Assembly: GCA_013177825.1 (NCBI GenBank)
Contig: JABLXX010000001.1
Span: 208,936 to 272,935, forward strand
Direction: 5' to 3'
DNA length: 64,000 bases
Origin: Syntrophaceae bacterium
GTDB taxonomy: Bacteria; Desulfobacterota; Syntrophia; Syntrophales; PHBD01
The translations under genes were made by a program, and so were the position numbers. Below are positions 6,941 through 39,664 of the stretch, piece after piece. Numbering within the stretch: position 1 is the first letter of the stretch; the number at the start of each line of letters is the position of its first letter. The notes under the pieces are model-generated. The model worked only from the letters and a program-made list of their open reading frames with translations, ran no database searches and was not told where the DNA came from.

Positions 6941-8064
6941 CCGGGGAATCGAACCCGCACGTGAAGGAAAGCAATTCCTCATCGCCTTCACGAAACCGTC
7001 TGCGGGAAGGATTGTTGAACGGTATGCTTCTAGTGGTAACACTGGTCCTGGGTCTGCTTTTCATTGACTGGTTCAGCACGTTTTTCATCGACAGCCGTTC
7101 CCCCTTTGAACGCATGTTCCCGGTGGAACAGACAAGGCATCTCGAACCCTTCATCATGTTCAAGGGAAAACCGGGAGGAGGGCACAACGATCTTGGATAC
7201 AAGGGAAGATCCCCAACTCAAGCGCGGCCCGGCAGTTATCGCATCTTCTTCCTCGGGGGGTCCACCGCCTACGACGGGGAACCTCCCATTGCGGAATTGC
7301 TTGAAAAGCGGTTTCATGAAATGGGTGCAAAAAACGTTGACGTGTTCAACTTCGGCGTAGTCAGTTCCAATTCCGGGATGGAACTGGCCCGTGTCGTCCA
7401 TGAAATACTGGATTACAAGCCCGATTATGTGATTTTCTTCAATGGCGGCAATGATCTGATCTCTCCTCTCGGCTGGGATCCGCGTCCCGGTTATCCATTC
7501 AATTTCATGGCTTATGAGAAAAATCCCCTGATGGAGACCCGCCGGCAGTACAGCCTGGTAAAATCAATAGCCTTGGGAAGCAACCTGTTCCGCGTCGCCG
7601 CCGGCCGCTATCCAGCCCTCAACGAATGGCTCCTGGGACAGGAGGATCTCCGGAAACAGGCCGGTTTCAAAACAGTTCCCTGGATGGAACATATCGTTGC
7701 CGTCTATCTGGGAAACGCCATGAAGGCCCAGACCGCCCTCTCCGGCGCTGATGCCCGCTTCGCCGTCTTCTTCCAGCCGCTGATCTATTACAAGGACCAC
7801 CTGGGGGCGAAGGAACAACCGCTCTGCGCCGAACAGGGCAGGGGATATTATGAAGAAATGAGGTCGAAGGTGCGCTCGATGTACCGGGAGCGCTTTCCCA
7901 GCCTGAATTTCTTTGATGTAAGCGACATTTATGATACAGAGCGAAGCGACGTTTTTACTGATATCATTCACACAACCCAGGAGGGACGAATGGCCATGGC
8001 GGTCACGATCTGTGACCGGATCGCTGCCGACGCCCTCCGGGATATGAAGAGGAAAGGCAAATGA
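6937..8064 (+). CDS. Membrane-anchored SGNH/GDSL-type hydrolase or acyl-esterase
   Basis: N-terminal TM ([16 protein letters not shown]). SGNH blocks: FFLGGSTAY (block I), [11 protein letters not shown] (II), FFNGGNDL (III), DIIHTT (V). ATGA overlap with the acetyltransferase gene. Confidence 0.6.
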
Positions 8065-9881
8065 CAGCATCGAAAAAGAAAGGTTCAGCGGGGAGGCGGC
8101 TGATGTCGGGAAACGAGGCCATCGCCCGCGGCGCGTACGAATGCGGCGTTCGATTCGGATCCGGATATCCCGGAACGCCCAGCACGGAGGTCATGGAAGA
8201 GTTCGCCCGTTATGAAGGCGTGTATGCCGAATGGTCCCCCAATGAAAAGGTGGCCCTGGAAGTGGGAATCGGCGCTGCCCTGGCCGGGGCGAAGGCCCTT
8301 GTAACCATGAAGCATGTCGGCGTGAATGTGGCTGCCGACCCTCTCTTTACCGCCAGTTATACCGGAACGAACGGGGCCCTGGTGATCGTCTCCGCCGACG
8401 ACCCATCGCTGCATAGTTCGCAGAACGAGCAGGACAACAGGAATTACGCAAAATTCGCCAAGATCCCGATGCTCGAACCGGCTGACTCGGAAGAGGCGCG
8501 GCAATTCATCAAGATCGCTTTTGAAATGAGCGAACGATTCGACACGCCGGTGTTCCTGCGATCCGTGACGAGACTCTCCCATTCCAAGGCAGTCGTAACG
8601 CCCGAAGATCCAGTCCCGGTGGAAGACCGCACAGCCATTAACATCAACGCCGCCAAGTATGTAATGGTCCCCTTTAACGCCCGGGTCCGTCGCGTGGAAG
8701 TGGAAAAAAGAATGAATGCCCTCCGGGAATTCGCCGAAACGTTCCCTGAAAACCGGATGGAAATCAACGATCCCGAGGTGGGGATCATCACGGCCGGTAT
8801 GTGCTACCACTATGCGAAGGCCGCCTTTCGCAATTATTCCTACCTGAAACTGGGGATGGTATACCCGCTCCCGGTGGGCCTGATCCGTGAGTTCGCCCGA
8901 AAGGTGAAGAAAATCTACGTGCTCGAAGAGATGGATCCTTTCTTCGAAGAGCAGATCAAAGCCCTCGGCATTTCCGTGATCGGAAAAGAGATCTTCCCCT
9001 ACACCGGCGAATTCGACCCGGGAATCGTACAGACAGCCATTTCCGGTACAAAACCGGAATCCATCTCTTGCCCGGTCGAGATTCCTCCGCGGCCGCCCAA
9101 CCTCTGTCCCGGTTGTCCACACCGAGGTCTCTTCCATGTCCTGAACCGTCTGAAGACCTTCGTTACAGGGGACATCGGCTGTTATACCCTTTCATTCATG
9201 AAACCTCTCGAGGGGCTGCATTCCTGCATCTGCATGGGCGCCAGCATCGGCATGGCCCACGGAATGAGCAAGGCACTGGGAGAAAAGGGGAGGGGAAAGA
9301 TCGTCGGCGTGATCGGCGATTCCACCTTCCTTCACAGCGGCATCACGCCCCTTCTCAACCTGGCCTATAACAAGGGAGATGCGGTGATCGTCATCTGCGA
9401 CAACCGGACGACCGCCATGACGGGCATGCAGGAGCATCCAGGGACTGGTTATACCCTGCAGGGGGAGAAAACAAAGCCGGTGGACCTCAAGGCACTGATC
9501 ACCGCGCTGGGCATCGATTCCGTCAGGGTCGTGGATCCCTATGACCTGAAAGCGACGCGCGCGGTTCTCAAGGAAGAGCTCGACCGGCCGGGGCCTTCCG
9601 TTGTCATCTCCCAGCGGGCCTGTGTTTTGTTCAAGCGGGAAGCGCAGGCCGCACGCAAGCCCCTGCGGGTGAACCCAGACAAGTGCATCGGCTGCCGGTC
9701 TTGCATCGGCCTGGGCTGTCCGCCCATCGCCTGGCGCAATTTCTCGGAGCTGCCCCCGGAGCAGGTGAAGAAAAACGCCAAGAAGCAGGATGGAATGGCT
9801 GTCATCGATGGAACCCTTTGCAACGGCTGCACGGTCTGTCAGCAGTTGTGCAAGGTCGGGGCCATTGTCGAGGAGGACTGA
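8061..9881 (+). CDS. iorA: Indolepyruvate:ferredoxin oxidoreductase, alpha subunit
   Basis: LMSGNEAIARGAYECGVRFGSGYPGTPSTEVME, a TPP-binding region (GDSTFLHSG) and C-terminal 2x[4Fe-4S] motifs CIGCRSCIGLGCP / CNGCTVCQQLC. Confidence 0.9.
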   Translation: MTASKKKGSAGRRLMSGNEAIARGAYECGVRFGSGYPGTPSTEVMEEFARYEGVYAEWSPNEKVALEVGIGAALAGAKALVTMKHVGVNVAADPLFTASYTGTNGALVIVSADDPSLHSSQNEQDNRNYAKFAKIPMLEPADSEEARQFIKIAFEMSERFDTPVFLRSVTRLSHSKAVVTPEDPVPVEDRTAININAAKYVMVPFNARVRRVEVEKRMNALREFAETFPENRMEINDPEVGIITAGMCYHYAKAAFRNYSYLKLGMVYPLPVGLIREFARKVKKIYVLEEMDPFFEEQIKALGISVIGKEIFPYTGEFDPGIVQTAISGTKPESISCPVEIPPRPPNLCPGCPHRGLFHVLNRLKTFVTGDIGCYTLSFMKPLEGLHSCICMGASIGMAHGMSKALGEKGRGKIVGVIGDSTFLHSGITPLLNLAYNKGDAVIVICDNRTTAMTGMQEHPGTGYTLQGEKTKPVDLKALITALGIDSVRVVDPYDLKATRAVLKEELDRPGPSVVISQRACVLFKREAQAARKPLRVNPDKCIGCRSCIGLGCPPIAWRNFSELPPEQVKKNAKKQDGMAVIDGTLCNGCTVCQQLCKVGAIVEED

Positions 9882-9884
9882 CGA

Positions 9885-10463
9885 ATGAAAAGCGAAGTCA
9901 AAAGCATTCTCATGGCCGGCGTGGGCGGGCAGGGCGTCCTCCGGGCGAGTGATATCCTCTGCCAGGTGATGATGGATTCGGGGCTGGACGTGAAGAAGAG
10001 CGAAGTCCACGGCATGGCCCAGCGGGGCGGATGCGTTACAAGCCACGTCCGTTATGGGCAAAAAGTCCATTCCCCTCTGGCGAAAAAGGGGGATGTGGAG
10101 ATCCTGCTGGCCTTCGAAAAACTGGAGACGCTGCGCTACCTGGATTACCTGAAACCGGGCGGCATCGTCATCATCAACGATGAAGAGATGAATCCGCCGT
10201 CCGTCAACCTGGGGGCGGCGGCATATCCGGAAACCGTGGTTCCCATCGTCAAGGAACGTTTTCCATCGGTTATCGTGGTCAACGCCCCGGAACTTGCCGA
10301 CAGGGCCGGCAACCGCCGGGCCGTCAATACGGTTCTCCTCGGTGTCCTGTCGAAATATCTAAAAATCGAAGAGAAGCAATGGGAAAAGGGGATCCACGAT
10401 TCCTTTCCGCTAAAGACCGTGGAAGCAAATATTAAGGCGTTTCACTTGGGGAGGGGCGCGTAG
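9885..10463 (+). CDS. iorB: Indolepyruvate:ferredoxin oxidoreductase, beta subunit
   Basis: ILMAGVGGQGVLRASDIL...EVHGMAQRGGCVTSHVRYG is the gamma-domain signature of the 2-oxoacid:Fd oxidoreductase family. Lies immediately after iorA. Confidence 0.85.
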   Translation: MKSEVKSILMAGVGGQGVLRASDILCQVMMDSGLDVKKSEVHGMAQRGGCVTSHVRYGQKVHSPLAKKGDVEILLAFEKLETLRYLDYLKPGGIVIINDEEMNPPSVNLGAAAYPETVVPIVKERFPSVIVVNAPELADRAGNRRAVNTVLLGVLSKYLKIEEKQWEKGIHDSFPLKTVEANIKAFHLGRGA

Positions 10464-23070: not shown

Positions 23071-24210
23071 TCAGGACCCGGCCCGGCGGAGAATCTCCGT
23101 CGCCTGGATGATCTTCATGACCTCCACCGTCCCGGAAGCCGGGAAAAGCTCCAAGGCATCATTGAGAAGCCTGGGCAGGTGGGATTGAGGATTCACGCCT
23201 TGCCCTCCCAGGATCTGCATGGCCTTCTGGGTGACCAGCAGGGCCGTTTCGGCGCCGACGGCCTTGGCCCGGGCCGCCCACTTCCCGATGCGCCGCGGCT
23301 GCACACCACGGTCCAGGGCTGCTCCGGGATAGTAAACGACCCACCGGGCCTTTTCGATCTCCGTTTCCATTTCTGCCAGCATGAACTGGATGTGCTGAAG
23401 CCGGCTGATCGGTTTCCCATAAAGGACCCTTTCCCGGGCAAAGCGGAGGGCGATTTCGAAGGCGCCCTCGGCGATGCCGAGACCGATGGCCCCGATGGTG
23501 GGACGGGAAACGATGAAGCTGGAAAGGGCAATCGCATGCCCGTCGCCTTCCCGGCCGATCAGGTTCCCGCCGGGAACGCGGCAGTCCTCGAAAAGGAGTT
23601 CGCTGATTGGGACGGAGCGGAACCCCGTCTGGCTCTCCCTTCGTCCGACCCGAAAACCGGGCGTCTTCTTCTCGACCATGAGCATGCTGGCACGGTTTCC
23701 TGTCCGGACCAGAAGGAGACAGTAATCCGCAATGCCGCCGTTTGTAATGTAAACCTTTCGTCCCCGGACCCGGAACGTATCTCCTTCCCGCGCCGCTTCC
23801 GTATTGAGGTTGGCCACGTCGGAGCCGCCGGTGGGCTCCGTGGCGGCAAGGCAGATGATCCGCTTTCCCCGAAGTACCGGGGTCAGATACCGCTTTCGCT
23901 GTTCCTCGGTGCCGTATCGCTCGAGGGCATGGACAGGGGCCAGGGTACCTTCCAGAAAGAAGGCGATGGACGGATAGACCCGGGATATTTCCTCGGCAGC
24001 GACCAGTCCCGCCAGATAACCAAGGCCCGATCCGCCGGTTTCCCGGTCCTGGGCCGCACCGATGATTCCTAGAGACGCAAGGGAAGCCGGCAGTTTACGG
24101 GGAAATTCACCTACTGCGTCCAGATCGAGGGCCCGGGGAGCAAGTTCCTCTTCCGCCATTCGACGCACGGTTGCCCGAAACTCCTGAAGTTCTTCGCTCA
24201 ACTCAAACAT
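23071..24210 (-). CDS. Acyl-CoA dehydrogenase
   Basis: MFELSEELQEFRATVRRMAEEELAP...LAATEPTGGSDV...YITNGGIADY...QILGGQGV. Start at 24210 (RBS AGGA 9 nt upstream). The longer ORF extension is not ACAD-like. Confidence 0.9.
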   Translation of the reverse strand: MFELSEELQEFRATVRRMAEEELAPRALDLDAVGEFPRKLPASLASLGIIGAAQDRETGGSGLGYLAGLVAAEEISRVYPSIAFFLEGTLAPVHALERYGTEEQRKRYLTPVLRGKRIICLAATEPTGGSDVANLNTEAAREGDTFRVRGRKVYITNGGIADYCLLLVRTGNRASMLMVEKKTPGFRVGRRESQTGFRSVPISELLFEDCRVPGGNLIGREGDGHAIALSSFIVSRPTIGAIGLGIAEGAFEIALRFARERVLYGKPISRLQHIQFMLAEMETEIEKARWVVYYPGAALDRGVQPRRIGKWAARAKAVGAETALLVTQKAMQILGGQGVNPQSHLPRLLNDALELFPASGTVEVMKIIQATEILRRAGS

Positions 24211-24483
24211 CGTTTCATTCCTCATCGCAGGATGGTCCGATACACGCGGGGTGCAATTCTCTATCACATTACTGTCGGGAATGCCCTTCCCTTTCTTCCT
24301 CCTGGGATGAGGTCCCCCCAGATATTGCAGGAGCAGATCCGCCTCTTTGCCGGTTGAAAAAAACTCAGCCACCTGTTAGTGACAGAGAACGAAACGGCAA
24401 ACCCCGACCGGCGTATCACTCCTGCCGTGAACTGCGGGAAGTCCGCTTCCGGTCCTGAACAATCCCATCGAAGGAGGGCGATC

Positions 24484-25623
24484 ATGGATTTCAGACTTAC
24501 GGAAGAGCAGGAACTCATTCGCAAGAACATGAGGGAATTCGCGGAGAAGTATGTGGACCCCATCGCCGCCGAGATTGACGAAAACAGCAGGCATCCTGTC
24601 GAGCTGTTCCGGAAGCTCGCAGAGGGAGACTGGATGGGGATTCCAATTCCCCAGGAGTACGGCGGAGCCGGAGCGGATTACCTGACGCACACGCTGGTCG
24701 TGGAGGAATTGTCGCGATCCTGCTCGTCAACGGGATTCACCGTCTCCATTCACGTGGGCATCGCCTGCATGCTGATCAACCTCTTCGGCAGCGAAGACCA
24801 GAAAAAAAAATTCCTCGTTCCCATGGCCAGAGGCCGGCACCTGGGCGCCTTTGTCCTGACGGAGCCGGGGGCCGGGACGGACGTTATGGCCGCTACGACC
24901 ACCGCCGTGGCGGACGGAGGCGATTATGTAATCAACGGAACAAAGACCTTTACGTCCAACGGACCGACGGGCGACACCTACATGGTCTTCGCATGGACAG
25001 ACAAGGCGGCAGGTCGGAAGGGCATGAGCGCCTTCATCGTTCCCAAGGAAACCATAGGTATGAAAGCAGGCGAACACTTTGACAAGATGGGTCTCCGCTC
25101 CTCCCAGACCTCCGAAATGGTCTTCAAGGACTGCCGGGTCCCGAAGGAAAACCTGCTGGGCAAGGAAGGAAACGGTATGGCCATGGCCATGGCGGGCTTC
25201 GACCACGGCCGAGTCGGGATTGCGGCCCAGTCCGTCGGAATCCTGCAGGCGGCCCTGGATGAGTCCATCCGGTATTCCAAGGAGCGGGTCCAGTTCGGCA
25301 CCCCCATTGCCCGGCACCAGGCCATTTCCTGGATGATCGCCGACATGGCCACGGACCTGTCCGCCGCTCGCTACCTGACCTATGCCGCCGCCTGGCTGAA
25401 AGACCAGAAACAGCCCTTCAGCAAGGAGGCCTCCATGGCCAAGCTGTTCGCCGCCGAGGCCGCCATGAAACACACGATCAAGGCCGTTCAGATCCACGGC
25501 GGATACGGGTACTGCAAGGGTGCCAAGGTGGAGCGACTGATGCGGGACGCGAAGATCACCGAGATTTACGAAGGAACGTCGGAGGCACAGAGGATGGTGA
25601 TATCCGGAAACGTGCTCCGCTAG
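24484..25623 (+). CDS. Acyl-CoA dehydrogenase (short/medium-chain, butyryl-CoA dehydrogenase-like)
   Basis: MDFRLTEEQELIRKNMREFAEKYV...FVLTEPGAGTDV...FTSNGP...QIHGGYGY...RDAKITEIYEGTSEAQR. RBS GGAGG upstream of the ATG at 24484. Confidence 0.92.
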   Translation: MDFRLTEEQELIRKNMREFAEKYVDPIAAEIDENSRHPVELFRKLAEGDWMGIPIPQEYGGAGADYLTHTLVVEELSRSCSSTGFTVSIHVGIACMLINLFGSEDQKKKFLVPMARGRHLGAFVLTEPGAGTDVMAATTTAVADGGDYVINGTKTFTSNGPTGDTYMVFAWTDKAAGRKGMSAFIVPKETIGMKAGEHFDKMGLRSSQTSEMVFKDCRVPKENLLGKEGNGMAMAMAGFDHGRVGIAAQSVGILQAALDESIRYSKERVQFGTPIARHQAISWMIADMATDLSAARYLTYAAAWLKDQKQPFSKEASMAKLFAAEAAMKHTIKAVQIHGGYGYCKGAKVERLMRDAKITEIYEGTSEAQRMVISGNVLR

Positions 25624-25662
25624 GAAACCGGGGTTCGGGAATGCCCGGACGGAGGGATGAGG

Positions 25663-26433
25663 ATGGCAGTCCTGGTTGCATGCTTCAAATGGGTCATCGA
25701 CGAGGCCTACATCCGGCGGACCTCCGCCGGTGAACTGGACCTGTCTTCTGTCAGTTACAAGATCAGCGACTACGACCGGAACGCCCTGGAAGAGGCGGCC
25801 CGCCTGAAGGAAGCAGCCGGAGGATCCGTCGCCGCCGTAACCGTGGGTATCCCCGAAGCGACCAAAGGCGTCAAGGACGCCCTCTCCCGGGGCGCCGATC
25901 AGGCCTTTTTCATTGCCGATCCCTCCTTTGAAAAGCTTGATGCCTCCCGGACGGCCGCCGTTCTGGCGGATGTCATCCGGACACGCATCGGTCATTTTGA
26001 TCTGATCCTCTGCGGCGAAGGATCGAGCGATCGCTACGACCAGCAGGTTGGGATCCGCCTGGCGGAGCGGCTGGGCATCCCCTGCGTGTCCTTTGTCCAG
26101 AAGATCGATCTGGAGGAAGGGCGCCTGTCGGCCGAACGGCGTCTGGAGGACGGGATCGAGCAGGTTTCCGCCCCGTTGCCCGCCGTTGTGACGGTCCTTC
26201 CGGACATCAACGTTCCCAGAATCCCCGGCGTGAAAGACACGCTGTCGGCCTCCCGCAAGCCCATCGTCACGATCGGCAGGGAGGAACTGTCCGTCACGCA
26301 GGACGACGGGCATTTTCGCACCGTTTCACTCACGGCTTCCCGACTGGAGCGGCAGTGCGAGCGTTTCGGGATGGACGAGGCGGAAATCAGCCGTTTTGTC
26401 GGAATGCTTCGACAAAAGGGAGTTCTCCGATAA
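25663..26433 (+). CDS. etfB: Electron transfer flavoprotein, beta subunit
   Basis: MAVLVACFKWVIDE...ISDYDRNALEEAARLKE...DLILCGEGSSDRYDQQVG. The second ATG (25663) is better spaced from GGAGGG than the one at 25657. Confidence 0.85.
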   Translation: MAVLVACFKWVIDEAYIRRTSAGELDLSSVSYKISDYDRNALEEAARLKEAAGGSVAAVTVGIPEATKGVKDALSRGADQAFFIADPSFEKLDASRTAAVLADVIRTRIGHFDLILCGEGSSDRYDQQVGIRLAERLGIPCVSFVQKIDLEEGRLSAERRLEDGIEQVSAPLPAVVTVLPDINVPRIPGVKDTLSASRKPIVTIGREELSVTQDDGHFRTVSLTASRLERQCERFGMDEAEISRFVGMLRQKGVLR

Positions 26434-26444
26434 AGGAACACGCC

Positions 26445-27407
26445 ATGGCAGGAATCTGGATATTCGCTGAAAAGATCGGGCAGGCCCTGGAACTTCTCGA
26501 GGCGGGGCAAACACTCATCGCCGCAGGAATGAGCGGAGAACTCGCGGCCTTTTCGTGGCCGGGCGGACCCGACCCGGAGGTACTCGGAACGGGAGGCGCC
26601 GCCGAAGTGTTGCTGCTTCCGCCTCTGGCCGAAGATCAGCCTCTTGAGGCCTATGGACCCGCCATTTTGGCGGAAGCCCGGCAAGCAGGGCCGGACTTAT
26701 TGCTCTTTTCCGCCACGGCCCGCGGCAAGGACCTGGCGGCCCGGATCGCCGGCGGTCTCGATGCCGGACTCTGCAGCGGATGCACCGCTCTCCGCTGGGA
26801 CAGCGAATCCGAAACACTGGAAATGGAGAGGCTTTTGTACGGCGGAGCGGCGGTTCACAGGATCGCGGCCCTCGCCTTCCCCATTCTGGCGGCCGTGCCC
26901 CCCGGAACGTTCCGTCCGGGCGCCGGAAACCCGGACCGGAAACCCCGAACCCGTCATCTGCCGGCGCCTCCCCTTTCTTCGGTCCGCGTACTGGAACGAA
27001 AGCCCAAGGAGCGGCAGGGACTGGACGTCGCGGCGTCGAAGATCGTCGTATGCGCCGGCCGCGGCTTCGACAAAAGGGAAGATCTTGCCCTTGCCCGCGA
27101 CCTGGCGGATGCCCTGGGTGGCGCCCTGGCCTGCACGAGGCCGATTTCTGAGGAAATGCACTGGCTTCCGGAAGACCTCTGCATCGGACTGTCGGGCATC
27201 CAGGTCAAGCCGGACCTGTATATCGGTATCGGCGTCTCCGGCCAGGTCCAGCACCTGACGGGAATCCGCGGCGCCAAGGTCGTCTGTGCCGTCAACCGCG
27301 ACGATCAGGCGCCGATCTTTGCCGCAGCCGACCTGGGCATCGTCGGCGACCTCTATGCGGTCCTTCCCCGTCTCCTTCAGGCGTTGAAGGAAACGGCGTC
27401 TCCCTGA
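26445..27407 (+). CDS. etfA: Electron transfer flavoprotein, alpha subunit
   Basis: C-terminal FAD-binding region IVVCAGRGF...LGGALACTRP...QVKPDLYIGIGVSGQVQHLTGI...VVCAVNRDDQAPIF. Start at the ATG at 26445 (MAGIWIFAEK). Confidence 0.85.
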   Translation: MAGIWIFAEKIGQALELLEAGQTLIAAGMSGELAAFSWPGGPDPEVLGTGGAAEVLLLPPLAEDQPLEAYGPAILAEARQAGPDLLLFSATARGKDLAARIAGGLDAGLCSGCTALRWDSESETLEMERLLYGGAAVHRIAALAFPILAAVPPGTFRPGAGNPDRKPRTRHLPAPPLSSVRVLERKPKERQGLDVAASKIVVCAGRGFDKREDLALARDLADALGGALACTRPISEEMHWLPEDLCIGLSGIQVKPDLYIGIGVSGQVQHLTGIRGAKVVCAVNRDDQAPIFAAADLGIVGDLYAVLPRLLQALKETASP

Positions 27408-32068: not shown

Positions 32069-32097
32069 TTGACACGTCCTCATGATTTCCCTATGCT
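32069..32097 (+). promoter_or_regulatory. Sigma70-type promoter for the hydrogenase operon
   Basis: TTGACA (32069-32074), 17-nt spacer, TATGCT (32092-32097). About 210 nt upstream of the ATG at 32310. Confidence 0.45.
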
Positions 32098-32309
32098 CGT
32101 TTGGAATTTCAAGCACTTGAATTGTGTGTTGAAAATAACAGAGGACCTTTCGGACACTCGGTCCTGATTCATCCAGCGGGGGCGCGTTACAGCAAAGGGG
32201 GGTTTGCTCTTTCGGGCAAGCCCCTCGCTTGTCTGTCGCAGTCCGCTGCGGCAGGGCGCCGGACAAACGAAGCGCAATGAATATACGGAAGGCTTAGGAC
32301 AGGTTCCAT

Positions 32310-35300
32310 ATGATCAGCATTCGCATCGACGGGCAAGACTATCTGGTGGAAAAAGGACAGACCATCATCGATGCCGCGCGGGCCCACGGCATCGACATCC
32401 CCTTTCTCGGATACGACCCCCGGGTCAGCCCGCCAAGCAACGTGGAAGCGGCCTTTGTGGAGCTTCATGCAGGAGGCGGCATCAGATTCGTCTCGGCGAC
32501 GGCCACCGAGGCGTCGGAAGGCATGGTCATCCGTACAGAATCGGATGCCCTGGCAAGTTACCGGAAAATCTACCTTCAGGCCATACTCCGCCATCACTAC
32601 GGCGACTGCACCGCACCGTGCGTCCGGCGCTGTCCCGCCCACATCGACATCCAGAAGTATATCTACCACGTGGATGCCGGCAATTTCCGGGAGGCCCTGG
32701 AAGTCATAAAAGACAGCAATCCGATGCCCGCCGTCTGCGGCCGCGTATGCCCCCATCCCTGCGAATCCGACTGCCGGAGAAACGCCGTCGACGGCGCCGT
32801 CAACATCAACGGCATCAAGCGATTCGTCGCCGACAGGGACCGCTGCCAACTCACCCCCTACCGGCCGGAGTGTGCGTCCGATACGGGCTTTCGAGTCGCC
32901 GTCATCGGTGCCGGTCCCGCGGGTTTGACAGCGGCCTGGTTTCTCCGGAGGGCCGGGCATCGGGTAACGATCTTCGAGATGCAGGAAGCGGCTGGAGGAA
33001 TGCTGCGCTGGGGAATCCCCTTCTACCGTCTTCCCGAGGAAGAACTCGATGCGGAGATCCAGTCCATTCTCGAACTCGGTATCGACATTCATTACGGGAA
33101 GAAGCTTGGCCGCGATTTTACGCTGGATTCCCTGAAAAAGGACGGGTTTGACGCCGTGTTCGCCGGCCTGGGCGCACAGAAGGCATCCCCGATCGGAGTG
33201 GAGGGAGAAAACCTCCCCGGCGTCGTCTCGGGACTTGATTTTCTCGCGGCACTGGCGCGGGGGGGGAAACCGGAAACGGGGGAGCGGGTGATCGTTCTGG
33301 GCGGTGGAAACACCGCCATGGACGCGGCCCGCAGTGCCGTCCGGCTCGGAGTCAGGGATGTCGTCGTAGCCTACCGGAGAACCCGTCGCGAAATGCCGGC
33401 CCAGGAGGATGAGATCGAAGAGGCCCTGGAGGAAGGAGTCGACATCCGATACCTGACAGCCCCGCTGGCCATCGAGAAGGAAGGCCCCTTGCTTCGGCTC
33501 ACGTGTACAAAAATGGAACTGGGGGAACCGGACAAGAGCGGAAGAAGACGGCCTGTTCCCGTTCCGGGGTCCGAGTTCACCCTCATGGCGACGATGATCA
33601 TCTCCGCCATCGGGCAGACCGTGGACGGCCTCTGCCTGGGACACGAAAAGCTTCTCGACCGGTGGGGAAATGTCCAGGCCGATCCCGCGACCATGCAGAC
33701 GGCGATTCCCTGGGTCTTCTCAGGCGGCGACTGCGTAACGGGTCCCGACATCGCCATTGCCGCCATCGGGGCCGGCAGGAAAGCGGCCGCATCCATCGAC
33801 CGTTATCTCCGGGAGGGAACGGTCCTGTCTCCCGACGAACCATACTCCTGCACGAAGGGTGACTGGAAGGACATCCCGAAGGATGCCTTCAAGGACGTCC
33901 GGCCCGCCCGGAGAAACGGGATCATCGTTCTGCCGCCCGAAGAAAGGAAATCAACCTTTGCGGAATCGACCCGGACCTGGGACGCCGATACGGCCATGGA
34001 GGAAGCCTCCCGGTGCCTCCTGTGCGGTTGCTCGGAGCGCTACGGATGCGATCTCCGAAGTTACGCAAGCCGCTACGGCGTCCAGCACGATGAATCACGG
34101 CCGGGAACACTCCTGCCGGTGGACGACAACCACCCGATCATCCGGCGTGACGCCGGAAAGTGCATCCTCTGCGGACTCTGCCTGAAGGTATGCCGTGAGA
34201 TGGAGGGAGTCTCCGCGCTGAGCTTTTACGAGACGAACAACGTTCTCACCATCGGACCGAACGACCACCGCCCCCTGGATCTGACGACCTGTGTCGCCTG
34301 CGGTCACTGTACAACCATCTGCCCAACGGGAGCGCTGACCCTGAGGCCGGTCCTGCCTTCCGTGTACCGGGCCCTCCACACGCCGGAATGGACGGTCGTC
34401 GCCCAGATCGCTCCGGCGGTGCGCGCCGCCTTCGGCCAGCACTACGGCATTCTGCCGGAAAACGTCATGCCCGTGTTGAGCGCGGGGCTGAAGGAACTGG
34501 GATTCGATTTTGTCTTCGACACCTGCTGGGCCGCTGACCTGACCATCATGGAGGAGGGCACGGAATTCCTGTCGCGCCTGGCGGAGGGCGGCGTGATGCC
34601 CCAGATCACGTCCTGCTGCCCTGCCTGGGTGAATTACTGCGAAAAAATGGCACCGGACATCCTGCCCAACCTTTCCTCCTGCAAATCTCCCCAGCAGATG
34701 TTCGGCGCGGTCATGAAGCGCTATTTTGCAAAGCAGTTGCGGGTGAGGCCGGAACTTCTCTGCTTCATCTCCATCATGCCCTGCAATGCCAAAAAATACG
34801 AAGCCAGCCGTCCGGAGTTCCGATCGGGAGACGTTCCCGACGTGGATATCGTCATGACGACAACCGACGTCATCGCCATGTTCGAGGAGAGGCACATCGA
34901 TCCCCTGTCGATCAAACCCGTTCCCGTGGACGCGTTCTTCGGGAAGGCCAGCGGCGCCGGCATCATTTTCGGGGCCAGCGGCGGCGTGGCGGAAGCGGCC
35001 CTGCGGCTGGCATCGGAGAAGATCAGCGGCCGGAGAATGGAGAGCTTCAATTACGAAGGCGTGCGGGGGATGCAGGGGGTCAAGGAGACCAGGGTCCGGC
35101 TGGGCGAGACCGACGTCCGGCTGGCTGTCGTCAGCGGGCTGCAGAACGCCCAGCGGTTGATCGACCGGATTCGGGCCGGCGACGCCCCCTACGACCTCAT
35201 CGAGGTCATGGCCTGCCCGGGCGGATGCATCAACGGCTCGGGCAATCCGGCTCCACAGCTGAAAAGCGACACGGAATACCGCCTGGAGGTTCTGTACCGT

Positions 35301-35750
35301 CTTGATCAGGAGGCGTCCATCCGGACCAGCCAGGACAATCCCTCGGTCCAGGACGTCTATCGAAACTGGCTGGGGCGGCCGGACAGCGACGCCTCCCATC
35401 ATGCCCTTCACACGACCTACCGCCGCCGCTCCATGCGCCCGCAGGAACCGGCCGCTGCCGTTCCCCGTACCGAATATCCGGTGGTTGATGTGGGGGTCTG
35501 CATCGGAACGAACTGCTACGTCAAGGGATCCTGGAAATTGCTGGAGGGCCTGTCGGCCGAGTTGAAAAGGCGGGGTCTCACGGAACGGTGCCGAGTGAAG
35601 GCCCGTTTCTGTACGGGACAGTGCCAGGACGGCCCGAACATCGCCGTCAACGGCCGGATCATCGGCATCGCGAATCCGGACGACGCGGTGGGCATCGTCG
35701 ATCGGCACCTGATTCCCGCTCTGGACGGCCCCTTCAAGGAAAAAGAATAG
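32310..35750 (+). CDS. Chimeric NAD(P)H oxidoreductase (GltD/NfnB-like) and catalytic [FeFe] hydrogenase, with a C-terminal thioredoxin-like [2Fe-2S] domain
   Basis: GltD-like: CTAPCVRRCP...CGRVCPHPCESDCRRN, VAVIGAGPAGL, VIVLGGGNTAMD. 2x[4Fe-4S]: CILCGLCLKVC / CVACGHCTTICP. H-cluster motifs ITSCCPAWV, MPCNAKKYE, EVMACPGGCINGSGNP. C-terminal CIGTNC...FCTGQC. Confidence 0.9.
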   Translation: MISIRIDGQDYLVEKGQTIIDAARAHGIDIPFLGYDPRVSPPSNVEAAFVELHAGGGIRFVSATATEASEGMVIRTESDALASYRKIYLQAILRHHYGDCTAPCVRRCPAHIDIQKYIYHVDAGNFREALEVIKDSNPMPAVCGRVCPHPCESDCRRNAVDGAVNINGIKRFVADRDRCQLTPYRPECASDTGFRVAVIGAGPAGLTAAWFLRRAGHRVTIFEMQEAAGGMLRWGIPFYRLPEEELDAEIQSILELGIDIHYGKKLGRDFTLDSLKKDGFDAVFAGLGAQKASPIGVEGENLPGVVSGLDFLAALARGGKPETGERVIVLGGGNTAMDAARSAVRLGVRDVVVAYRRTRREMPAQEDEIEEALEEGVDIRYLTAPLAIEKEGPLLRLTCTKMELGEPDKSGRRRPVPVPGSEFTLMATMIISAIGQTVDGLCLGHEKLLDRWGNVQADPATMQTAIPWVFSGGDCVTGPDIAIAAIGAGRKAAASIDRYLREGTVLSPDEPYSCTKGDWKDIPKDAFKDVRPARRNGIIVLPPEERKSTFAESTRTWDADTAMEEASRCLLCGCSERYGCDLRSYASRYGVQHDESRPGTLLPVDDNHPIIRRDAGKCILCGLCLKVCREMEGVSALSFYETNNVLTIGPNDHRPLDLTTCVACGHCTTICPTGALTLRPVLPSVYRALHTPEWTVVAQIAPAVRAAFGQHYGILPENVMPVLSAGLKELGFDFVFDTCWAADLTIMEEGTEFLSRLAEGGVMPQITSCCPAWVNYCEKMAPDILPNLSSCKSPQQMFGAVMKRYFAKQLRVRPELLCFISIMPCNAKKYEASRPEFRSGDVPDVDIVMTTTDVIAMFEERHIDPLSIKPVPVDAFFGKASGAGIIFGASGGVAEAALRLASEKISGRRMESFNYEGVRGMQGVKETRVRLGETDVRLAVVSGLQNAQRLIDRIRAGDAPYDLIEVMACPGGCINGSGNPAPQLKSDTEYRLEVLYRLDQEASIRTSQDNPSVQDVYRNWLGRPDSDASHHALHTTYRRRSMRPQEPAAAVPRTEYPVVDVGVCIGTNCYVKGSWKLLEGLSAELKRRGLTERCRVKARFCTGQCQDGPNIAVNGRIIGIANPDDAVGIVDRHLIPALDGPFKEKE

Positions 35751-35761
35751 GAATAACGCCC

Positions 35762-36037
35762 ATGCTTGTGGTCACCATCTGTGTCGGCAGTTCGTGCAGC
35801 CTCCGGGGATCGGATGAACTGGCGTCCGGAATCCAGCGGCTCATCGTCAAGGAGCAACTCGAGGGACTGGTCGACATCGTCGGCGCCTTCTGCATGGATG
35901 CCTGTTCAAAAGGCGTTTCGGTGACAGTGGGCAGCCGCGAGTTCAACGGCATTCGCCCGGAAGACGCCGACGCCTTTTTTTATCGCGAGATCTTTCCCCT
36001 GCTCGGCAACAACGAACTCGTGAGGGCTCGCTCATGA
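35762..36037 (+). CDS. Small thioredoxin-like [2Fe-2S] ferredoxin (NuoE/HndA-like, HfsA-like)
   Basis: 91 aa. MLVVTICVGSSCSLRG...GAFCMDACSKG carries four Cys in the TRX-like 2Fe-2S arrangement. Start set at the ATG at 35762. The stop overlaps the next gene as ATGA. Confidence 0.7.
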   Translation: MLVVTICVGSSCSLRGSDELASGIQRLIVKEQLEGLVDIVGAFCMDACSKGVSVTVGSREFNGIRPEDADAFFYREIFPLLGNNELVRARS

Positions 36038-37752
36038 ACGAACCGGTCATCATCACGAATCCCGCCCTGTGTCACGACTGCTACCGCTGCGTGCGGAACT
36101 GCGACGTCAAGGCAATCCGCGTCCGGGACGGACAGGCCCAGGTCGTCCCCGAGCTCTGCATCCTCTGCGGCACCTGCATCCGCGTCTGCCCCCAGAAGGC
36201 CAAAGGCGTGCGGGCCTCCAGGCCGGACGTCTTGAAGGCGCACCGGGAAGGCCGGAAAATCATCGCCTCGGTGGCTCCTTCTATTCCCGCGTTCTTTCCG
36301 CTCCGAAGCTTCGCACAGGTTGAACATGCATTGAAAGCAATCGGGTTTCACGCCGCCGAGGAAACGGCCGTCGGCGCCCACATCGTGGCCCAGGCCCACC
36401 GGGACTACATGGAACAATCGAGAGACCGCTGGCCCGTGATCACCTCTTCCTGTCCTGTCATCGTCAATCTGGTCGAGCAGTATTATCCGGATCTCATCGG
36501 CCACCTGGTGCCCATCGTATCGCCCATGATCGCCCACGGCCGGATTCTGGCCCGGAAATACGGCCCCGAGGCGTACATCGTCTTCATCGGCCCCTGCATC
36601 GCCAAGAAAATGGAAATCCATGACGAGGCCGTAAGCGGCGTTGTCCATGCGGCCATAACCTTCCAGGGCCTGCAGGAATGGATGGCCGGGGCGGACGTTG
36701 CATGGCCCGAGCCGGCGGACGTGCCCGAAAAATCCGTTGAGGAAAAAGCGAGGCTGTTCCCCGTCGAGGGGGGACTGATCGGGACGGCCAGGATGAGTAC
36801 GGACATCCTGGACAAGCATCTGGTCATCGCCTCTGGTCTTCGCGCCTGCCGGGACGTTCTGAACGATATCCGCTCGGGGCAGCTTCACGCCTCCATGGTG
36901 GAGCTCATGGCCTGCAAGGGGGGATGCGTCAACGGACCGGTCATGGCCGACATGGAAGGCGGTATCTACGCGGCCCGGGAGAAGGTGATCCGTTTTCACG
37001 GCCGTTGCCAGCCGGAATTGCCCGTTCCCCAAGACGAATGGCCCGATCTGGCCAGGGGATACCGGGACCGAAAGGAGCACGGCCCGGAATTCAGCGAGGA
37101 AGACATTCAGAAGGTCCTGCACCGCATCAACAAGTACGGCCCCGACGACGAGCTGAACTGCGGCGCCTGCGGCTATTCATCCTGTCGGGAAAAGGCGCTG
37201 GCGACCCTGCGGGGCATGGCGGAAGTGACGATGTGCATCCCCTACATGCGGCGCCGCTCCGAATCACTGCGCCAGGTGGTCATGGATGCCACGCCGAACG
37301 CGATCATCATCGTCGACAACGACCTTCTGGTTCAGGACATGTCCCCCTCGGCGGAAACACTGTTTCGGAAAACCCTGTCCGATGTGAAGGGGAAGCACCT
37401 TTCGAACCTCATCACGGTCATGGACGATTTCATTCATGTCCGCGACACGGGGCAGCCCGTCATCGGCAGGGCGAGACGGCTGAAGGAAGACTTGGTGGGT
37501 GAACAGTCCATTGTCCGTGTCGAGGGACAGCTTCTCATGGTCGCCATTATCCGCGATGTCACGGAGCGAGAGAAGGAACGGGAGCAGTTCCGCTCCATCC
37601 GCGAGGAAACCCTGGAGCGGACACGGGAGGTCCTGGGCAAGCAGATGCGGGTTGCCCATGAGATCGCCCACCTCCTCGGAGAGACCACGGCGGAAAGCAA
37701 GACCATCGTGACCCATCTGGCCCGGTTACTGGAAGGGGATGATCAGGAGTGA
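36034..37752 (+). CDS. hydS: Putative sensory [FeFe] hydrogenase (group C / HydS type) with a C-terminal PAS domain
   Basis: 2x[4Fe-4S] CHDCYRCVRNC / CILCGTCIRVCP. Variant H-cluster motifs ITSSCPVIV, IGPCIAKKME, ELMACKGGCVNGP. Extra motif CGACGYSSC-x16-C. PAS-like region VVMDATPNAIIIVDNDLLVQDMSPSAETLF. Confidence 0.85.
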   Translation: MNEPVIITNPALCHDCYRCVRNCDVKAIRVRDGQAQVVPELCILCGTCIRVCPQKAKGVRASRPDVLKAHREGRKIIASVAPSIPAFFPLRSFAQVEHALKAIGFHAAEETAVGAHIVAQAHRDYMEQSRDRWPVITSSCPVIVNLVEQYYPDLIGHLVPIVSPMIAHGRILARKYGPEAYIVFIGPCIAKKMEIHDEAVSGVVHAAITFQGLQEWMAGADVAWPEPADVPEKSVEEKARLFPVEGGLIGTARMSTDILDKHLVIASGLRACRDVLNDIRSGQLHASMVELMACKGGCVNGPVMADMEGGIYAAREKVIRFHGRCQPELPVPQDEWPDLARGYRDRKEHGPEFSEEDIQKVLHRINKYGPDDELNCGACGYSSCREKALATLRGMAEVTMCIPYMRRRSESLRQVVMDATPNAIIIVDNDLLVQDMSPSAETLFRKTLSDVKGKHLSNLITVMDDFIHVRDTGQPVIGRARRLKEDLVGEQSIVRVEGQLLMVAIIRDVTEREKEREQFRSIREETLERTREVLGKQMRVAHEIAHLLGETTAESKTIVTHLARLLEGDDQE

Positions 37753-38927
37753 GGCAGGTCGTTGAATTTGCCTGGCGCAGTTTGAACAAGGCCGGGGAAG
37801 AACTCTGCGGCGATTCGGTCATCATCCGGACCCGCCCCGATTCGTTCGTCGCCGTCCTGTCGGACGGCCTGGGCAGCGGCGTCAAGGCGAGCATCCTTTC
37901 CACCTTGACGGCAGAGATCGCCGCCCGCCTCTTCGAATCGGGGATCTCCGTGGAAGAGGTCATGCAGACACTCGTGGAGACCCTTCCGGAATGCAATGTG
38001 AGAAAACTGGCCTATGCCACGTTCTCCGTACTCACCGTGATCGAGGGCCGTCGCGCCCATCTCGTGGAATTCGATTCTCCGCCCCTGATCATGATCCGGG
38101 ACAATGCCCTCTTCGACATCCAGACGGAAAAACGGGAGGTAAGCGGCCGGTTGATCCGGGAAGCCCGTTTCGATGTCCGGGAAAACGATTACCTGGTCCT
38201 GATCAGCGACGGCTATGAGCACGCGGGCCTCGGAGGCATTTACCGCATGGGGTGGAGATGGCCGAACATCGCCTTGGCCGTGCAGCGCTTCGTCCAGACG
38301 GGCGTGGACACGCACAGGCTCATGCTCGCCCTTTCGCGGACCTGCATGAAGCTTTACGACGACAAGCCCGGTGACGATTCGACGGTCATCGCCATGAAAA
38401 TCCGGCCGGCCGTGTCCATCGCCATTCTCACGGGGCCCCCCGCCGACAGGGATCTGGACGCTCATGCCGTTTCCAGGCTGATGGACGCCGAAGGCTGCAA
38501 GATCATCTGCGGAGGGAGCACCGCCCAGATGGCCGCCCGTGTTCTGGACAGGAAACTGGAGGTGGAGTGGGTTCCGCCCTGGAAACGGACGGAGGAAAAG
38601 CCCGCCCGGAAAAAAGGCTCCCCTCCCACGGCCCTCCTGCAGGGGGTCGATCTCGTCACCGAAGGGATCCTGACGCTGGGCCAGGCCGTCGAACTCATGC
38701 GCAACGCCGGAACAAGCGACGATCTTCCCCGCGACGACGACGCCGCCACCCGCCTTGCCCGCCATCTTCTGGGGGCCGACGACATCCATCTGATCGTCGG
38801 CACGGCCATCAACCCCAACCAGGTTGCCGACCTGATCCGCGGCGAGCCCATGCGCATGGTTTACATTCGTGAACTCGTTCAGGATCTTACACAGCGAAAC
38901 AAGCAGGTCCGGGTCGAGCGGATATGA
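37749..38927 (+). CDS. SpoIIE/PP2C-family serine phosphatase with an uncharacterised C-terminal domain of about 160 aa
   Basis: LCGDSVII...VAVLSDGLGSGVKASILS...DYLVLISDGYEHAG...GDDSTVIAMKI are SpoIIE-type metal-binding Asp blocks. 4-nt overlap with hydS. Confidence 0.8.
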   Translation: MRQVVEFAWRSLNKAGEELCGDSVIIRTRPDSFVAVLSDGLGSGVKASILSTLTAEIAARLFESGISVEEVMQTLVETLPECNVRKLAYATFSVLTVIEGRRAHLVEFDSPPLIMIRDNALFDIQTEKREVSGRLIREARFDVRENDYLVLISDGYEHAGLGGIYRMGWRWPNIALAVQRFVQTGVDTHRLMLALSRTCMKLYDDKPGDDSTVIAMKIRPAVSIAILTGPPADRDLDAHAVSRLMDAEGCKIICGGSTAQMAARVLDRKLEVEWVPPWKRTEEKPARKKGSPPTALLQGVDLVTEGILTLGQAVELMRNAGTSDDLPRDDDAATRLARHLLGADDIHLIVGTAINPNQVADLIRGEPMRMVYIRELVQDLTQRNKQVRVERI

Positions 38928-38938
38928 CCTGCACCGAA

Positions 38939-39664
38939 TCAGTCATGATCCAGAATGATCGAACGTTGCGAGGACGGGGGCTGGATCAACCGTCTGGGGA
39001 GTGCAATTCTCACCGTTGTACCCGTCGGGCCACGTTCCGGATCGGCATTCGATTCAATTCTCATTTCGCCTCGATGCGCTTTGACCGTACTGTACGCCGA
39101 CGGCAGGCCGAGGCCCGTTCCCTCACCGACCGGTTTGGTCGAGAAAAAGGGCGTGAGCAGTTCGTCCAGGTGCTCCTGCGGGATTCCCGTTCCCGTGTCG
39201 CGGATCGTAATCATGATCCTTTCACCGTCGGCGCTCTCCTCCCCGAATACCGTGAGTATGCCCCCCTGGGGCATGGCCTCGATGGCGTTCCGTTCGAGAT
39301 CGATCAACGCTTTCACGATGCGCTCATGATCCAGCCAGACGTCTTTGTCCTTGATTTCCGACCGGAGGGCTACATGAACGGATTCCGGTACGGAGAGGGA
39401 CCGGAGGCTGTCATCCAGGATAAGGACAATGTCCGTTTTTCTAAATTTTAGTCCCTGCAAGGCCTGAAGTATCCCCCTTTGGTCATGTCTTTCATTCTGC
39501 CGCTCTCCTCCGGTATATTCCACTTTGATTGCAGAAGGAAGGCAGCTTCCGGAGGCATCCGGATTCCTGAAACCGTCCCCTGCCTTCGTACTTTTCCTGC
39601 GGGTGAAGACTATACACGAGATCGGGGTGTCCCAGCAAAACGTTTGCAATGGGAAAAGGATCAT
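38939..39664 (-). CDS. Sensor-less histidine-kinase core (HATPase_c with a weak DHp region)
   Basis: N box [13 protein letters not shown]1 RDTGTGI, F box FFSTK, G2 GTGLGL. Candidate H-box [15 protein letters not shown] at 39664 preceded by GAGGAG 8 nt upstream. Confidence 0.7.

Follow-up and report, generated by a model that had tools for sequence, protein, structure and literature searches.

A flavin module and a hydrogenase are joined in a single polypeptide encoded within a 64,000-nucleotide stretch of DNA from a Syntrophaceae bacterium (assembly GCA_013177825.1, contig JABLXX010000001.1, positions 208,936 to 272,935 of the forward strand), a stretch referred to here, at its full length, as the window. 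The gene, at window positions 32310 to 35750, fuses an NADPH module of the NfnA/StnC type to an [FeFe] hydrogenase of the HydA type. Judged by its sequence, its product is probably a self-contained, non-bifurcating and reversible NAD(P)H-dependent [FeFe] hydrogenase, with NADPH as the most likely nucleotide. An earlier interpretation made from the letters of the DNA (the sequence-only reading) had proposed a one-polypeptide NAD(P)H:H+ oxidoreductase, and the domain anatomy, conserved ligands and residue alignments described below lend support to that view. The gene and its parts, with the evidence for each, are:

32310..35750, plus strand: whole gene, NfnA/StnC-type NADPH module fused to HydA-type [FeFe] hydrogenase (open reading frame (ORF), Pfam, Protein Data Bank (PDB) sequence matches, AlphaFold2 (AF2) model, Foldseek)
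32310..32564, plus strand: residues 1-85, Fer2 (beta-grasp) domain without [2Fe-2S] ligands (Pfam Fer2_4, alignments, column profiles, AF2 model, and the ratio of nonsynonymous to synonymous substitution rates, dN/dS)
32607..32849, plus strand: residues 100-180, two predicted [4Fe-4S] sites of the GltD/NfnL module (Fer4_20; alignment to 8oh5_C, 9n5u_A, 4ylf_B and 5jca_L)
32877..33824, plus strand: residues 190-505, predicted sites for flavin adenine dinucleotide (FAD; GAGPAG) and NAD(P)H (GGGNTAMD ... YRRT..EMPA) in a GltD/NfnL fold (Pyr_redox_2)
34005..34139, plus strand: residues 566-610, predicted all-Cys FS4C/N5-type [4Fe-4S] site C569, C572, C574, C580, termed A3 in the Bfu nomenclature (alignment to HydA and CpI from their residue ~98)
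34140..34349, plus strand: residues 611-680, two predicted ferredoxin-type [4Fe-4S] sites, the F-clusters, C618/621/624/628 and C661/664/667/671 (Fer4_7, alignments, invariance)
34350..35264, plus strand: residues 681-985, H-domain (Fe_hyd_lg_C; TIGR02512; alignment to CpI and to HydA of T. kivui, A. woodii and T. maritima)
35265..35444, plus strand: residues 986-1045, small-subunit-like HydA tail (Fe_hyd_SSU)
35484..35714, plus strand: residues 1059-1135, thioredoxin-like [2Fe-2S] domain with C1064, C1069, C1101 and C1105 (2Fe-2S_thioredx; alignment to 7p5h_A)

The reading frame begins with ATG and runs uninterrupted for 1146 amino acids with no internal stop. Full-length homologues of 1139-1155 amino acids are present at at least 70 genome loci and fall into about 100 clusters at 90% identity. 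A sequencing frameshift, by which two separate genes would appear as one, had been named as a possible flaw; it is excluded by the continuous frame together with homologues of equal length and full-length coverage in some 100 clusters and 70 loci.

Seven Pfam domains, each scoring over its gathering threshold, occur in the order that had been read from the sequence: Fer2_4 at residues 1-78 (E 2e-10; 41 bits, cutoff 22.8), Fer4_20 at 100-178, Pyr_redox_2 at 194-489, Fer4_7 at 617-675, Fe_hyd_lg_C at 695-976 (E 3e-88), Fe_hyd_SSU at 991-1040 (E 9e-17) and 2Fe-2S_thioredx at 1060-1131 (28.5 bits against 24.8). The last two hits bear out the small-subunit-like tail and the C-terminal thioredoxin-like 2Fe-2S domain as first described. 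All of the motifs quoted in the sequence-only reading were recovered (VAVIGAGPAGL, VIVLGGGNTAMD, CLLCGCSERYGC with C569/572/574/580, TSCCPAW, MPCNAKKYE and GCINGSGNP). The two ferredoxin motifs given there as CxxCxxCxxxCP need one amendment: the second (CVACGHCTTICP) does end in CP, whereas the first reads CILCGLCLKVC-R and ends in CR.

In a search of PDB sequences, residues 2-681 align in a single HMMER stretch to NfnA of Caldicellulosiruptor saccharolyticus (9bov_A, E 4e-176), to StnC of the Sporomusa ovata StnABC complex (8oh5_C, E 2e-159) and to the Thermococcus sibiricus NfnA (9n5u_A, E 1.5e-150). HydA of T. kivui and A. woodii, as well as CpI, are matched by residues 574-1041, and the alignment to T. 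maritima HydA (7p5h_A) reaches residue 1122 of the fused protein and residue 633 of 7p5h_A. An AF2 model built from a 63-sequence alignment (predicted local distance difference test, pLDDT, 84.5; predicted template modelling score, pTM, 0.76) gave the same order in Foldseek, with 9bov_A, 8oh5_C and 9n5u_A first, followed by HydA and CpI; root-mean-square deviations from the model were 3.6 Å over 707 columns for 9n5u_A and about 3 Å for HydA and CpI. The NCBIfam model PRK12814 (putative NADPH-dependent glutamate synthase small subunit, 657 amino acids) reached 681 bits, under its cutoff of 916, and covered only residues 2-632.

These matches and the residue alignments bear out that an FAD/NAD(P)H module of the GltD/NfnB type is lodged between a Fer2-fold domain devoid of Cys and the F-clusters. 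The sequence-only reading had left it uncertain whether this domain order had been described, and the answer divides. In StnC, a GltD fold (residues 102-565) is inserted in a NuoG-like domain, residues 1-101 carry a [2Fe-2S] cluster, and the C-terminal FdhF-like domain is catalytically dead (PMC10482914). The N-terminal 680 residues thus correspond to a scaffold already solved in StnC and NfnA; the combination with a live H-domain was not found in the literature. On alignment, then, the N-terminal insertion is the described StnC/NfnA scaffold and is not peculiar to the fused hydrogenase, and the new part is, to judge from its residues, a live H-domain on the branch that is vestigial in StnC.

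Flavin module, predicted iron-sulfur wire and H-domain

The cysteines C100, C104, C108, C143, C147, C151 and C155, together with K170, are invariant in 117 family members. K170 aligns with K170 of StnC and K165 of NfnA, the lysine ligand of the flavin-proximal cluster, and lysine occupies this position in 140 of 142 StnC/NfnA-like representatives; NfnB/NfnL (4ylf_B, 5jca_L) has glutamate there. The distinction has functional weight, in that the FAD of StnC is experimentally non-bifurcating and that of NfnSL, with the glutamate, is the bifurcating site (PMC10482914). R240, R356 and R357 are also invariant, and R240 and the YRRT..EMPA motif that holds R356 and R357 are common to the NADPH enzymes StnC, NfnA and NfnL, to whose NADPH-binding modules the flavin module is 40-50% identical.

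Homology to GltD (2vdc_G and 6s6s_G, E ~1e-64) raises the prospect of a dedicated, H2-dependent supply of reductant for glutamate synthase, with the GltD-like module docking on the GltB large subunit, a role that HydDB proposes for its A2 enzymes (PMC5037454). The module is, however, far closer to StnC and NfnA (E 1e-108 to 1e-121) than to GltD (E 1e-65), shares their lysine ligand, and feeds an iron-sulfur wire that runs covalently on into the hydrogenase. The window also has no ORF of gltB size, its largest others being DnaE (1160 amino acids) and Lon (818 amino acids), and a glutamate synthase role is accordingly considered very improbable.

Downstream of the module, the C569/C572/C574/C580 site is invariant in the family members and in 142 of 142 StnC/NfnA-like representatives, and by analogy with those proteins its cluster would be the entry point of electrons from the flavin module. 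The H-domain scores 445 bits with TIGR02512 (group A; cutoff 406). Its motifs ITSCCPAW, MPCNAKKYE and EVMACPGGCING match the group A patterns TSCCPxW, MPCxxKxxE and ExMxCxxGCxxG, and the four H-cluster ligands C770, C825, C969 and C973 are all present and invariant. A gap-free alignment pairs C769/C770 with C299/C300 of CpI, E749, E752, R756 and S789 with E279, E282, R286 and S319, M823, C825, K828 and E831 with M353, C355, K358 and E361, and M967, C969 and C973 with M497, C499 and C503. The wire cysteines, the H-cluster cysteines and the proton-path residues C769, E749, E752, R756 and S789 are invariant in the 117 family members. M823 (CpI M353) is Met in the window clade and Val in the sister clade, and is the only mapped catalytic residue to differ there. 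As far as sequence can tell, every feature of a group A catalytic [FeFe] hydrogenase is in place.

The GCINGSGNP ending of the third motif, noted earlier as unusual, is real and is a clade-invariant minor variant of GGGQP that leaves ligands and proton path intact; it departs from CpI at G507S and Q509N only, with GSGNP in 99 of 99 window-clade members and GAGHP in the sister clade. This deviation is one of three grounds on which the H-domain might be thought not to work, either as a sensor or as the vestigial catalytic domain of an NADPH:acceptor oxidoreductase as in StnC, the others being the dead FdhF-like domain of StnC and NfnA and a neighbouring gene for a sensory hydrogenase. Such a loss of function is hardly to be expected with the four H-cluster cysteines, Cys769 and E749/E752/R756/S789 all invariant (the neighbouring HydS-type protein has TSSCP and GPC instead), with TIGR02512 exceeding its cutoff, and with a dN/dS of 0.04-0.10 for the H-domain.

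Three cysteines of the H-domain are conserved and are not ligands. C791 sits where CpI has A321, between S319 and K322 along the proton path, and does not vary in either clade; in the Cys-less clade only, C777 and C739 are conserved as well.

The path that we infer, with its cofactors, nucleotide specificity, direction and regulation, would begin with NADPH handing a hydride to the FAD of the GltD/NfnL-type module. Electrons would pass singly from FAD to the two [4Fe-4S] clusters of the module, the flavin-proximal one having Lys170 as its fourth ligand, then to the all-Cys FS4C-type cluster (C569-C580), the two F-clusters and the H-cluster, where protons would be reduced in a reversible reaction; the N-terminal beta-grasp domain would lie off this wire. 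With standard potentials at pH 7 of -320 mV for NADP+/NADPH and -414 mV for H+/H2, the calculated H2 pressure in equilibrium with NADPH is about 70 Pa at a nucleotide ratio of 1 and higher when NADPH is in excess. It follows that NADPH-driven H2 evolution would be exergonic at the 1-10 Pa of methanogenic syntrophy, and at higher H2 NADPH would be made instead. The HydS-type sensor and PP2C-type phosphatase encoded next to the gene probably tune its expression or activity to the H2 level.

Several points weigh against this account. The preference for NADPH over NADH, most likely as it is, comes from homology. Full-text literature searches returned no published description of an H-domain with an internal GltD insertion or of the Cys-less clade. 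A linear wire leaves unexplained why the Cys-less domain and the C-terminal [2Fe-2S] domain are both maintained under purifying selection; electrons could enter or leave by the C-terminal cluster as a second site, and partners of the HydBC type may be encoded elsewhere in the genome.

The search for partner genes covered 42 predicted ORFs of the 64-kb window and found no hydB, hydC, hydE/F/G, nfnS (NfnS/PyrK-like), ferredoxin or gltB-sized gene, nor a Complex1_51K gene or separate NuoE-type gene; seven further ORFs of 104-256 amino acids, outside the scan, are too short for HydB or GltB, though not for HydC or NfnS. Nine scanned ORFs flanking a Syntrophorhabdaceae locus (L065) likewise held no hydB/hydC, nfnS or gltB, and the remaining loci were probed only for the window's own neighbour genes.

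The C-terminal domain is central to another account, in which the chain is an electron-confurcating (bifurcating) hydrogenase: an NfnL-type FAD would split or merge electron pairs, with one branch running along the [4Fe-4S] clusters to the H-cluster and a second through the C-terminal [2Fe-2S] cluster, which would exchange electrons with ferredoxin or another carrier. The cysteines of that cluster (CX4C...CX3C) are invariant in 98 of 98 members of the Cys-less clade, the domain is homologous to that of T. maritima HydA, and none of the lineages examined in the fused family lacks a peripheral [2Fe-2S] site altogether. Homology also links the flavin module to NfnL/NfnB, the protein with the bifurcating FAD of NfnSL (PMC10482914), and confurcation is common at the thermodynamic limit, where syntrophs live (PMC8892533). 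Set against this are the StnC/NfnA-type lysine at position 170, the lack of an NfnS-like FAD/[2Fe-2S] partner or a ferredoxin gene among the scanned window ORFs, and a linker to the C-terminal domain that is modelled at pLDDT <50 and lends no support to docking near the FAD. Confurcation therefore appears rather unlikely, and the non-bifurcating, NADPH-dependent enzyme is retained as the favored interpretation.

Outside the Cys-less clade, the thioredoxin-like domain is missing in actinobacterial forms and degenerate (CxCxxC, the second pair gone) in most other Cys-containing forms. A strict either/or between N- and C-terminal [2Fe-2S] sites, considered as a rule for the family, is only partly true, as relatives P0110, P0122 and P0123 hold both.

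The cysteine-free N-terminal domain

The first cysteine of the whole protein is C100. In alignments to the N-termini of StnC, HydA and NuoG, the four [2Fe-2S] ligand positions are occupied by G34, V45, A48 and T64, so that the claim of a Fer2-type domain without any of its four Cys ligands stands. That residues 1-90 might not be a Fer2 domain at all is ruled out by the Fer2_4 score, by phmmer, which with this domain as query matched 63 PDB sequences at E <= 0.01 (NuoG, HydA and StnC N-termini among them), and by the beta-grasp strand-helix pattern of the AF2 model, which has pLDDT 71-93 with a dip in confidence confined to residues 31-50.

Loss of the ligands is clade-wide. All members at 62-96% identity lack the cysteines (Smithella, Syntrophus, Syntrophaceae, Syntrophorhabdaceae and Desulfomonilia metagenome-assembled genomes (MAGs)); the clade comprises some 100 sequence clusters, drawn from MAGs of Syntrophales, Syntrophorhabdaceae and Desulfomonilia. 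Position 34 is Gly in 98 of 99 members, position 45 is V/F/I/T, position 48 is A/S and position 64 is Thr in 94, and the ligand positions are set in a near-invariant motif that includes LGYDPRVSPP, E46, E51 and SAT (with A63). Fused relatives at 44-48% identity, including those of Cellulomonas composti and Propionibacteriaceae, retain all four cysteines, as do 138-139 of the 142 StnC/NfnA-like representatives. Outside the hydrogenase fusion, two StnC/NfnA-like proteins, P0217 (1589 amino acids) and P0174 (812 amino acids), also lack some or all of the Fer2 cysteines, which suggests independent losses of the same cluster.

The word "relic", used for the domain in the sequence-only reading, proved misleading. 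Mean pairwise identity of the Cys-less domain within its clade is 0.63. The version with cysteines, taken within its own clade, has 0.58, the FS4C and thioredoxin-like domains have 0.67-0.68, and true linkers have 0.28-0.50. Its dN/dS is 0.10-0.30 in four comparisons (whole gene, 0.11-0.14). A decaying relic is ruled out by these values: the domain is conserved like the other peripheral domains and is under purifying selection. It appears to have been retained as a metal-free structural or interaction domain.

The solved scaffolds offer a reason why the cluster could be lost. As given in the NfnABC study (PMC12018979), electrons follow the path FAD-A7-A6-A3-A2-A1-B1-FMN, with a separate branch to the C-terminal FdhF-like domain. 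By analogy with complex I, we take A1 to be the N-terminal [2Fe-2S] cluster contacting the NuoF-like subunit, the partner to which that cluster would be the connector in StnC/NfnA and HydA alike. This would place the [2Fe-2S] cluster on the way to BfuB and to one side of the path that links the flavin module with the C-terminal catalytic branch, and a cluster off the hydrogenase route could be dispensed with.

A more elaborate version of confurcation would give the domain a task: in a complete one-polypeptide enzyme, NADPH and a second carrier at the C-terminal [2Fe-2S] cluster would together drive H2 formation, and the Cys-less domain would have a new use as a surface for docking or regulation, perhaps as the target of the neighboring HydS and PP2C proteins. 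This we consider unlikely.

The connecting cluster also bears on whether the protein is a HydA-like subunit of a larger complex, with HydB/HydC-type (BfuBC) partners encoded elsewhere and H2, NADPH, NADH and ferredoxin coupled. Both halves of the fusion come from families that normally work with BfuBC, and one Cys-containing relative, P0115, lies divergently beside a rex-hydC-hydC-hydB-hydA-hydS cluster (locus L079, 1-6721: rex, two hydC-like genes, hydB, a 679-amino-acid hydA with a thioredoxin-like C-terminus, and a hydS-like gene). That operon, however, carries its own HydA, the clade lacks the [2Fe-2S] cluster by which BfuA is joined to BfuB in every solved complex, and neither hydB nor hydC was found in the scanned ORFs of the window or around L065. 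Membership of such a complex is thus thought quite improbable.

Decoupling from HydBC was likewise entertained as the cause of the cluster loss, with the prediction that hydBC would lie beside the Cys-containing relatives. It is unsupported: P0115 alone of five such relatives adjoins a complete hydCCBA-hydS operon, and no hydBC was found near the other four (P0105, P0117, P0110 and P0111). With four of the five equally solitary, the fused enzyme seems to be stand-alone in general, which speaks for the self-contained hydrogenase favored here.

Distribution, genomic surroundings and significance

In a library of 1.84 billion representatives at 50% identity, the full fused architecture is confined to about four clusters: P0010, which is the entire Cys-less clade, P0122, P0123 and the fragment P0144. 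The next matches, at least 140 of them, span residues 1-680 only and are StnC/NfnA-like. The fusion is a narrow offshoot of a large family, well populated in Syntrophales. Public annotations are generic ("[FeFe] hydrogenase, group A", "NAD(P)-binding protein") or wrong ("formate dehydrogenase major subunit"). A further protein, P0121 (4122 amino acids), begins directly with an H-domain and has seven distinct segments that match the H-domain; it is a hydrogenase polyprotein of tandem repeats, or else an artefact of assembly or gene calling.

Two genes follow the fused hydrogenase closely:

36034..37752, plus strand: HydS-type putative sensory [FeFe] hydrogenase, 572 amino acids (Fer4, H-domain with TSSCP and GPC variants, PF04060 Fe-S motif, PAS)
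37749..38927, plus strand: PP2C/SpoIIE-type Ser/Thr phosphatase, 392 amino acids (SpoIIE E 1.7e-13; its start overlaps the hydS stop)

The pair lies directly 3' of the fused hydrogenase in 43 of the 53 loci whose sequence extends far enough downstream; most exceptions belong to Syntrophorhabdaceae, in which the gene stands alone among unrelated genes. We take the cassette to resemble the "phosphatase-linked" group C of HydDB. A 175-amino-acid ORF (38924-39451) overlaps the phosphatase stop and matches no family in Pfam or NCBIfam; its conservation across related loci, in some of which it is displaced, is only 30-70%, and it could be a partner of the phosphatase. Beyond it lie phoH and a 7TM-HD gene, and upstream of the hydrogenase are an ETF-alpha-like gene (ETF, electron transfer flavoprotein), two M16 peptidases and an M20 peptidase. 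The whole 17-kb neighborhood is syntenic with that of a groundwater MAG, "Deltaproteobacteria bacterium HGW-Deltaproteobacteria-19" (fused protein 96% identical, neighbors 70-98%). Two separate contigs of MAG Loclat_bin-13126 (L013 and L019) each carry a full hydrogenase-HydS-PP2C cassette, 73-74% identical to the window protein; the duplication reflects either paralogy or a mixed bin.

Within the 311 bp that precede the gene are a sigma-70-like site (TTGACA, 17 nucleotides, TATGCT; 10 of 12 positions matching) and, at 32197-32226, a GC-rich hairpin of 13 bp with no clean T-run after it; positions 32069-32226 may be a promoter with a leader structure. An Rfam scan of the window gave three tRNAs only, and no regulatory RNA near the gene. 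Farther off, positions 23071-27407 encode an acyl-CoA dehydrogenase (best NCBIfam matches, under cutoff, to acryloyl-CoA and cyclohexane-carbonyl-CoA dehydrogenases) and an ETF-alpha-like gene, separated by ORFs of 528 and 104 amino acids with no family match; no ETF-beta gene was recognized beside the ETF-alpha gene in this interval. At 8061-10463, a two-gene indolepyruvate-type 2-oxoacid:ferredoxin oxidoreductase (POR_N/TPP_enzyme_C, then POR) is a possible source of reduced ferredoxin in the organism.

If the proposed activity is correct, a single chain wiring NADPH directly to the H-cluster would be the simplest known route between anabolic reductant and H2, attractive for engineered H2 production or NADPH regeneration. 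It would also add an unrecognized H2/NADPH valve to models of syntrophic degraders of fatty acids, aromatics and alkanes (relatives of Smithella, Syntrophus and Syntrophorhabdus), in which the gene is widespread. The GltD-in-NuoG scaffold of the Stn/NfnABC transhydrogenases occurs, on this evidence, with a live hydrogenase domain as well; the clade-wide loss of the connector [2Fe-2S] cluster provides a natural experiment on what that cluster is for; and the tight hydrogenase-HydS-PP2C cassette is a defined system in which to ask what sensory [FeFe] hydrogenases regulate. The fusion is a coherent enzyme type of biotechnological appeal and no categorical surprise.

Relation to known enzymes

The StnC and NfnA proteins (Bfu type 1 "A" subunits; 8oh5, 9n5u, 9bov) share with the fused protein the Fer2 fold, the GltD/NfnL insertion at the same point, the lysine ligand at position 170, the all-Cys A3 site and two ferredoxin-type clusters. 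The fused protein differs in lacking the four [2Fe-2S] cysteines, in having an intact H-domain in place of the dead FdhF-like domain, and in that no BfuB (NuoF-like) or BfuC (NuoE-like) genes adjoin its gene; it also uses C143 as NfnB does, not the C114-type arrangement of StnC. By sequence, three features that define StnC/NfnA are thus missing from it: the [2Fe-2S] cluster, the FdhF-like domain and the BfuBC neighbors.

HydA of the HydABC complexes (T. kivui, 8a6t; A. woodii, 7q4v; T. maritima, 7p5h) and CpI have the same F-clusters, H-domain, small-subunit-like tail and catalytic residues, and T. maritima HydA (group A3) has in addition the C-terminal thioredoxin-like [2Fe-2S] domain. Relative to HydA, the fused protein has a GltD module of about 465 residues after the Fer2 domain, a cysteine instead of a histidine in the FS4C site, and no N-terminal [2Fe-2S] cluster. 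Unlike in T. maritima-type systems, hydB and hydC are not in its operon, the flanking genes being the M16/M20 peptidases upstream and hydS, PP2C, phoH and 7TM-HD downstream.

NfnL/NfnB, the large subunit of NfnSL (4ylf_B, 5jca_L), shares with the fused protein its fold, its FAD and NADPH sites and the C143-type cysteine pattern; NfnL, however, has glutamate at the Lys170 position, requires NfnS, of which the scanned window ORFs hold no homologue, and bifurcates at its FAD.

GltD linkages of other kinds are known, and those that the literature searches brought up are the A2 type, in which the GltD-like protein has a gene of its own, a fusion of HydB with GltD in Vallitalea, and StnC/NfnA. Under the HydDB rule for group A2, a GltA/GltD-type protein is encoded immediately downstream of the catalytic subunit (PMC5037454). 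Here the downstream gene is of the HydS type and the GltD-like module is internal to the chain, and since the rule calls for a downstream GltD-like gene, the fused protein is not placed in group A2. A2 enzymes and the HndD1 + SfrB-like pair of Pelobacter carbinolicus are predicted to couple H2/H+ to NAD(P)(H) through a GltD-type iron-sulfur flavoprotein (PMC5037454, PMC3543383), and the fused enzyme probably works, by analogy, in the same manner; those systems use two genes, with the GltD-like protein downstream of hydA, whereas the fused protein has the module within the hydrogenase chain.

Two reports (PMC9304861; PMC5626996) name the S. wolfei enzyme as a non-bifurcating homologue. It resembles the fused protein in that direct transfer from a pyridine nucleotide to H2 is made feasible by low H2. 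The enzyme of S. aciditrophicus is presumably a further example of this direct route. Enzymes of the S. wolfei type are multi-subunit and take electrons from NADH by way of a NuoF-type FMN subunit, unlike the fused protein, in which a GltD/NfnL-type module built into the hydrogenase chain would take that place.

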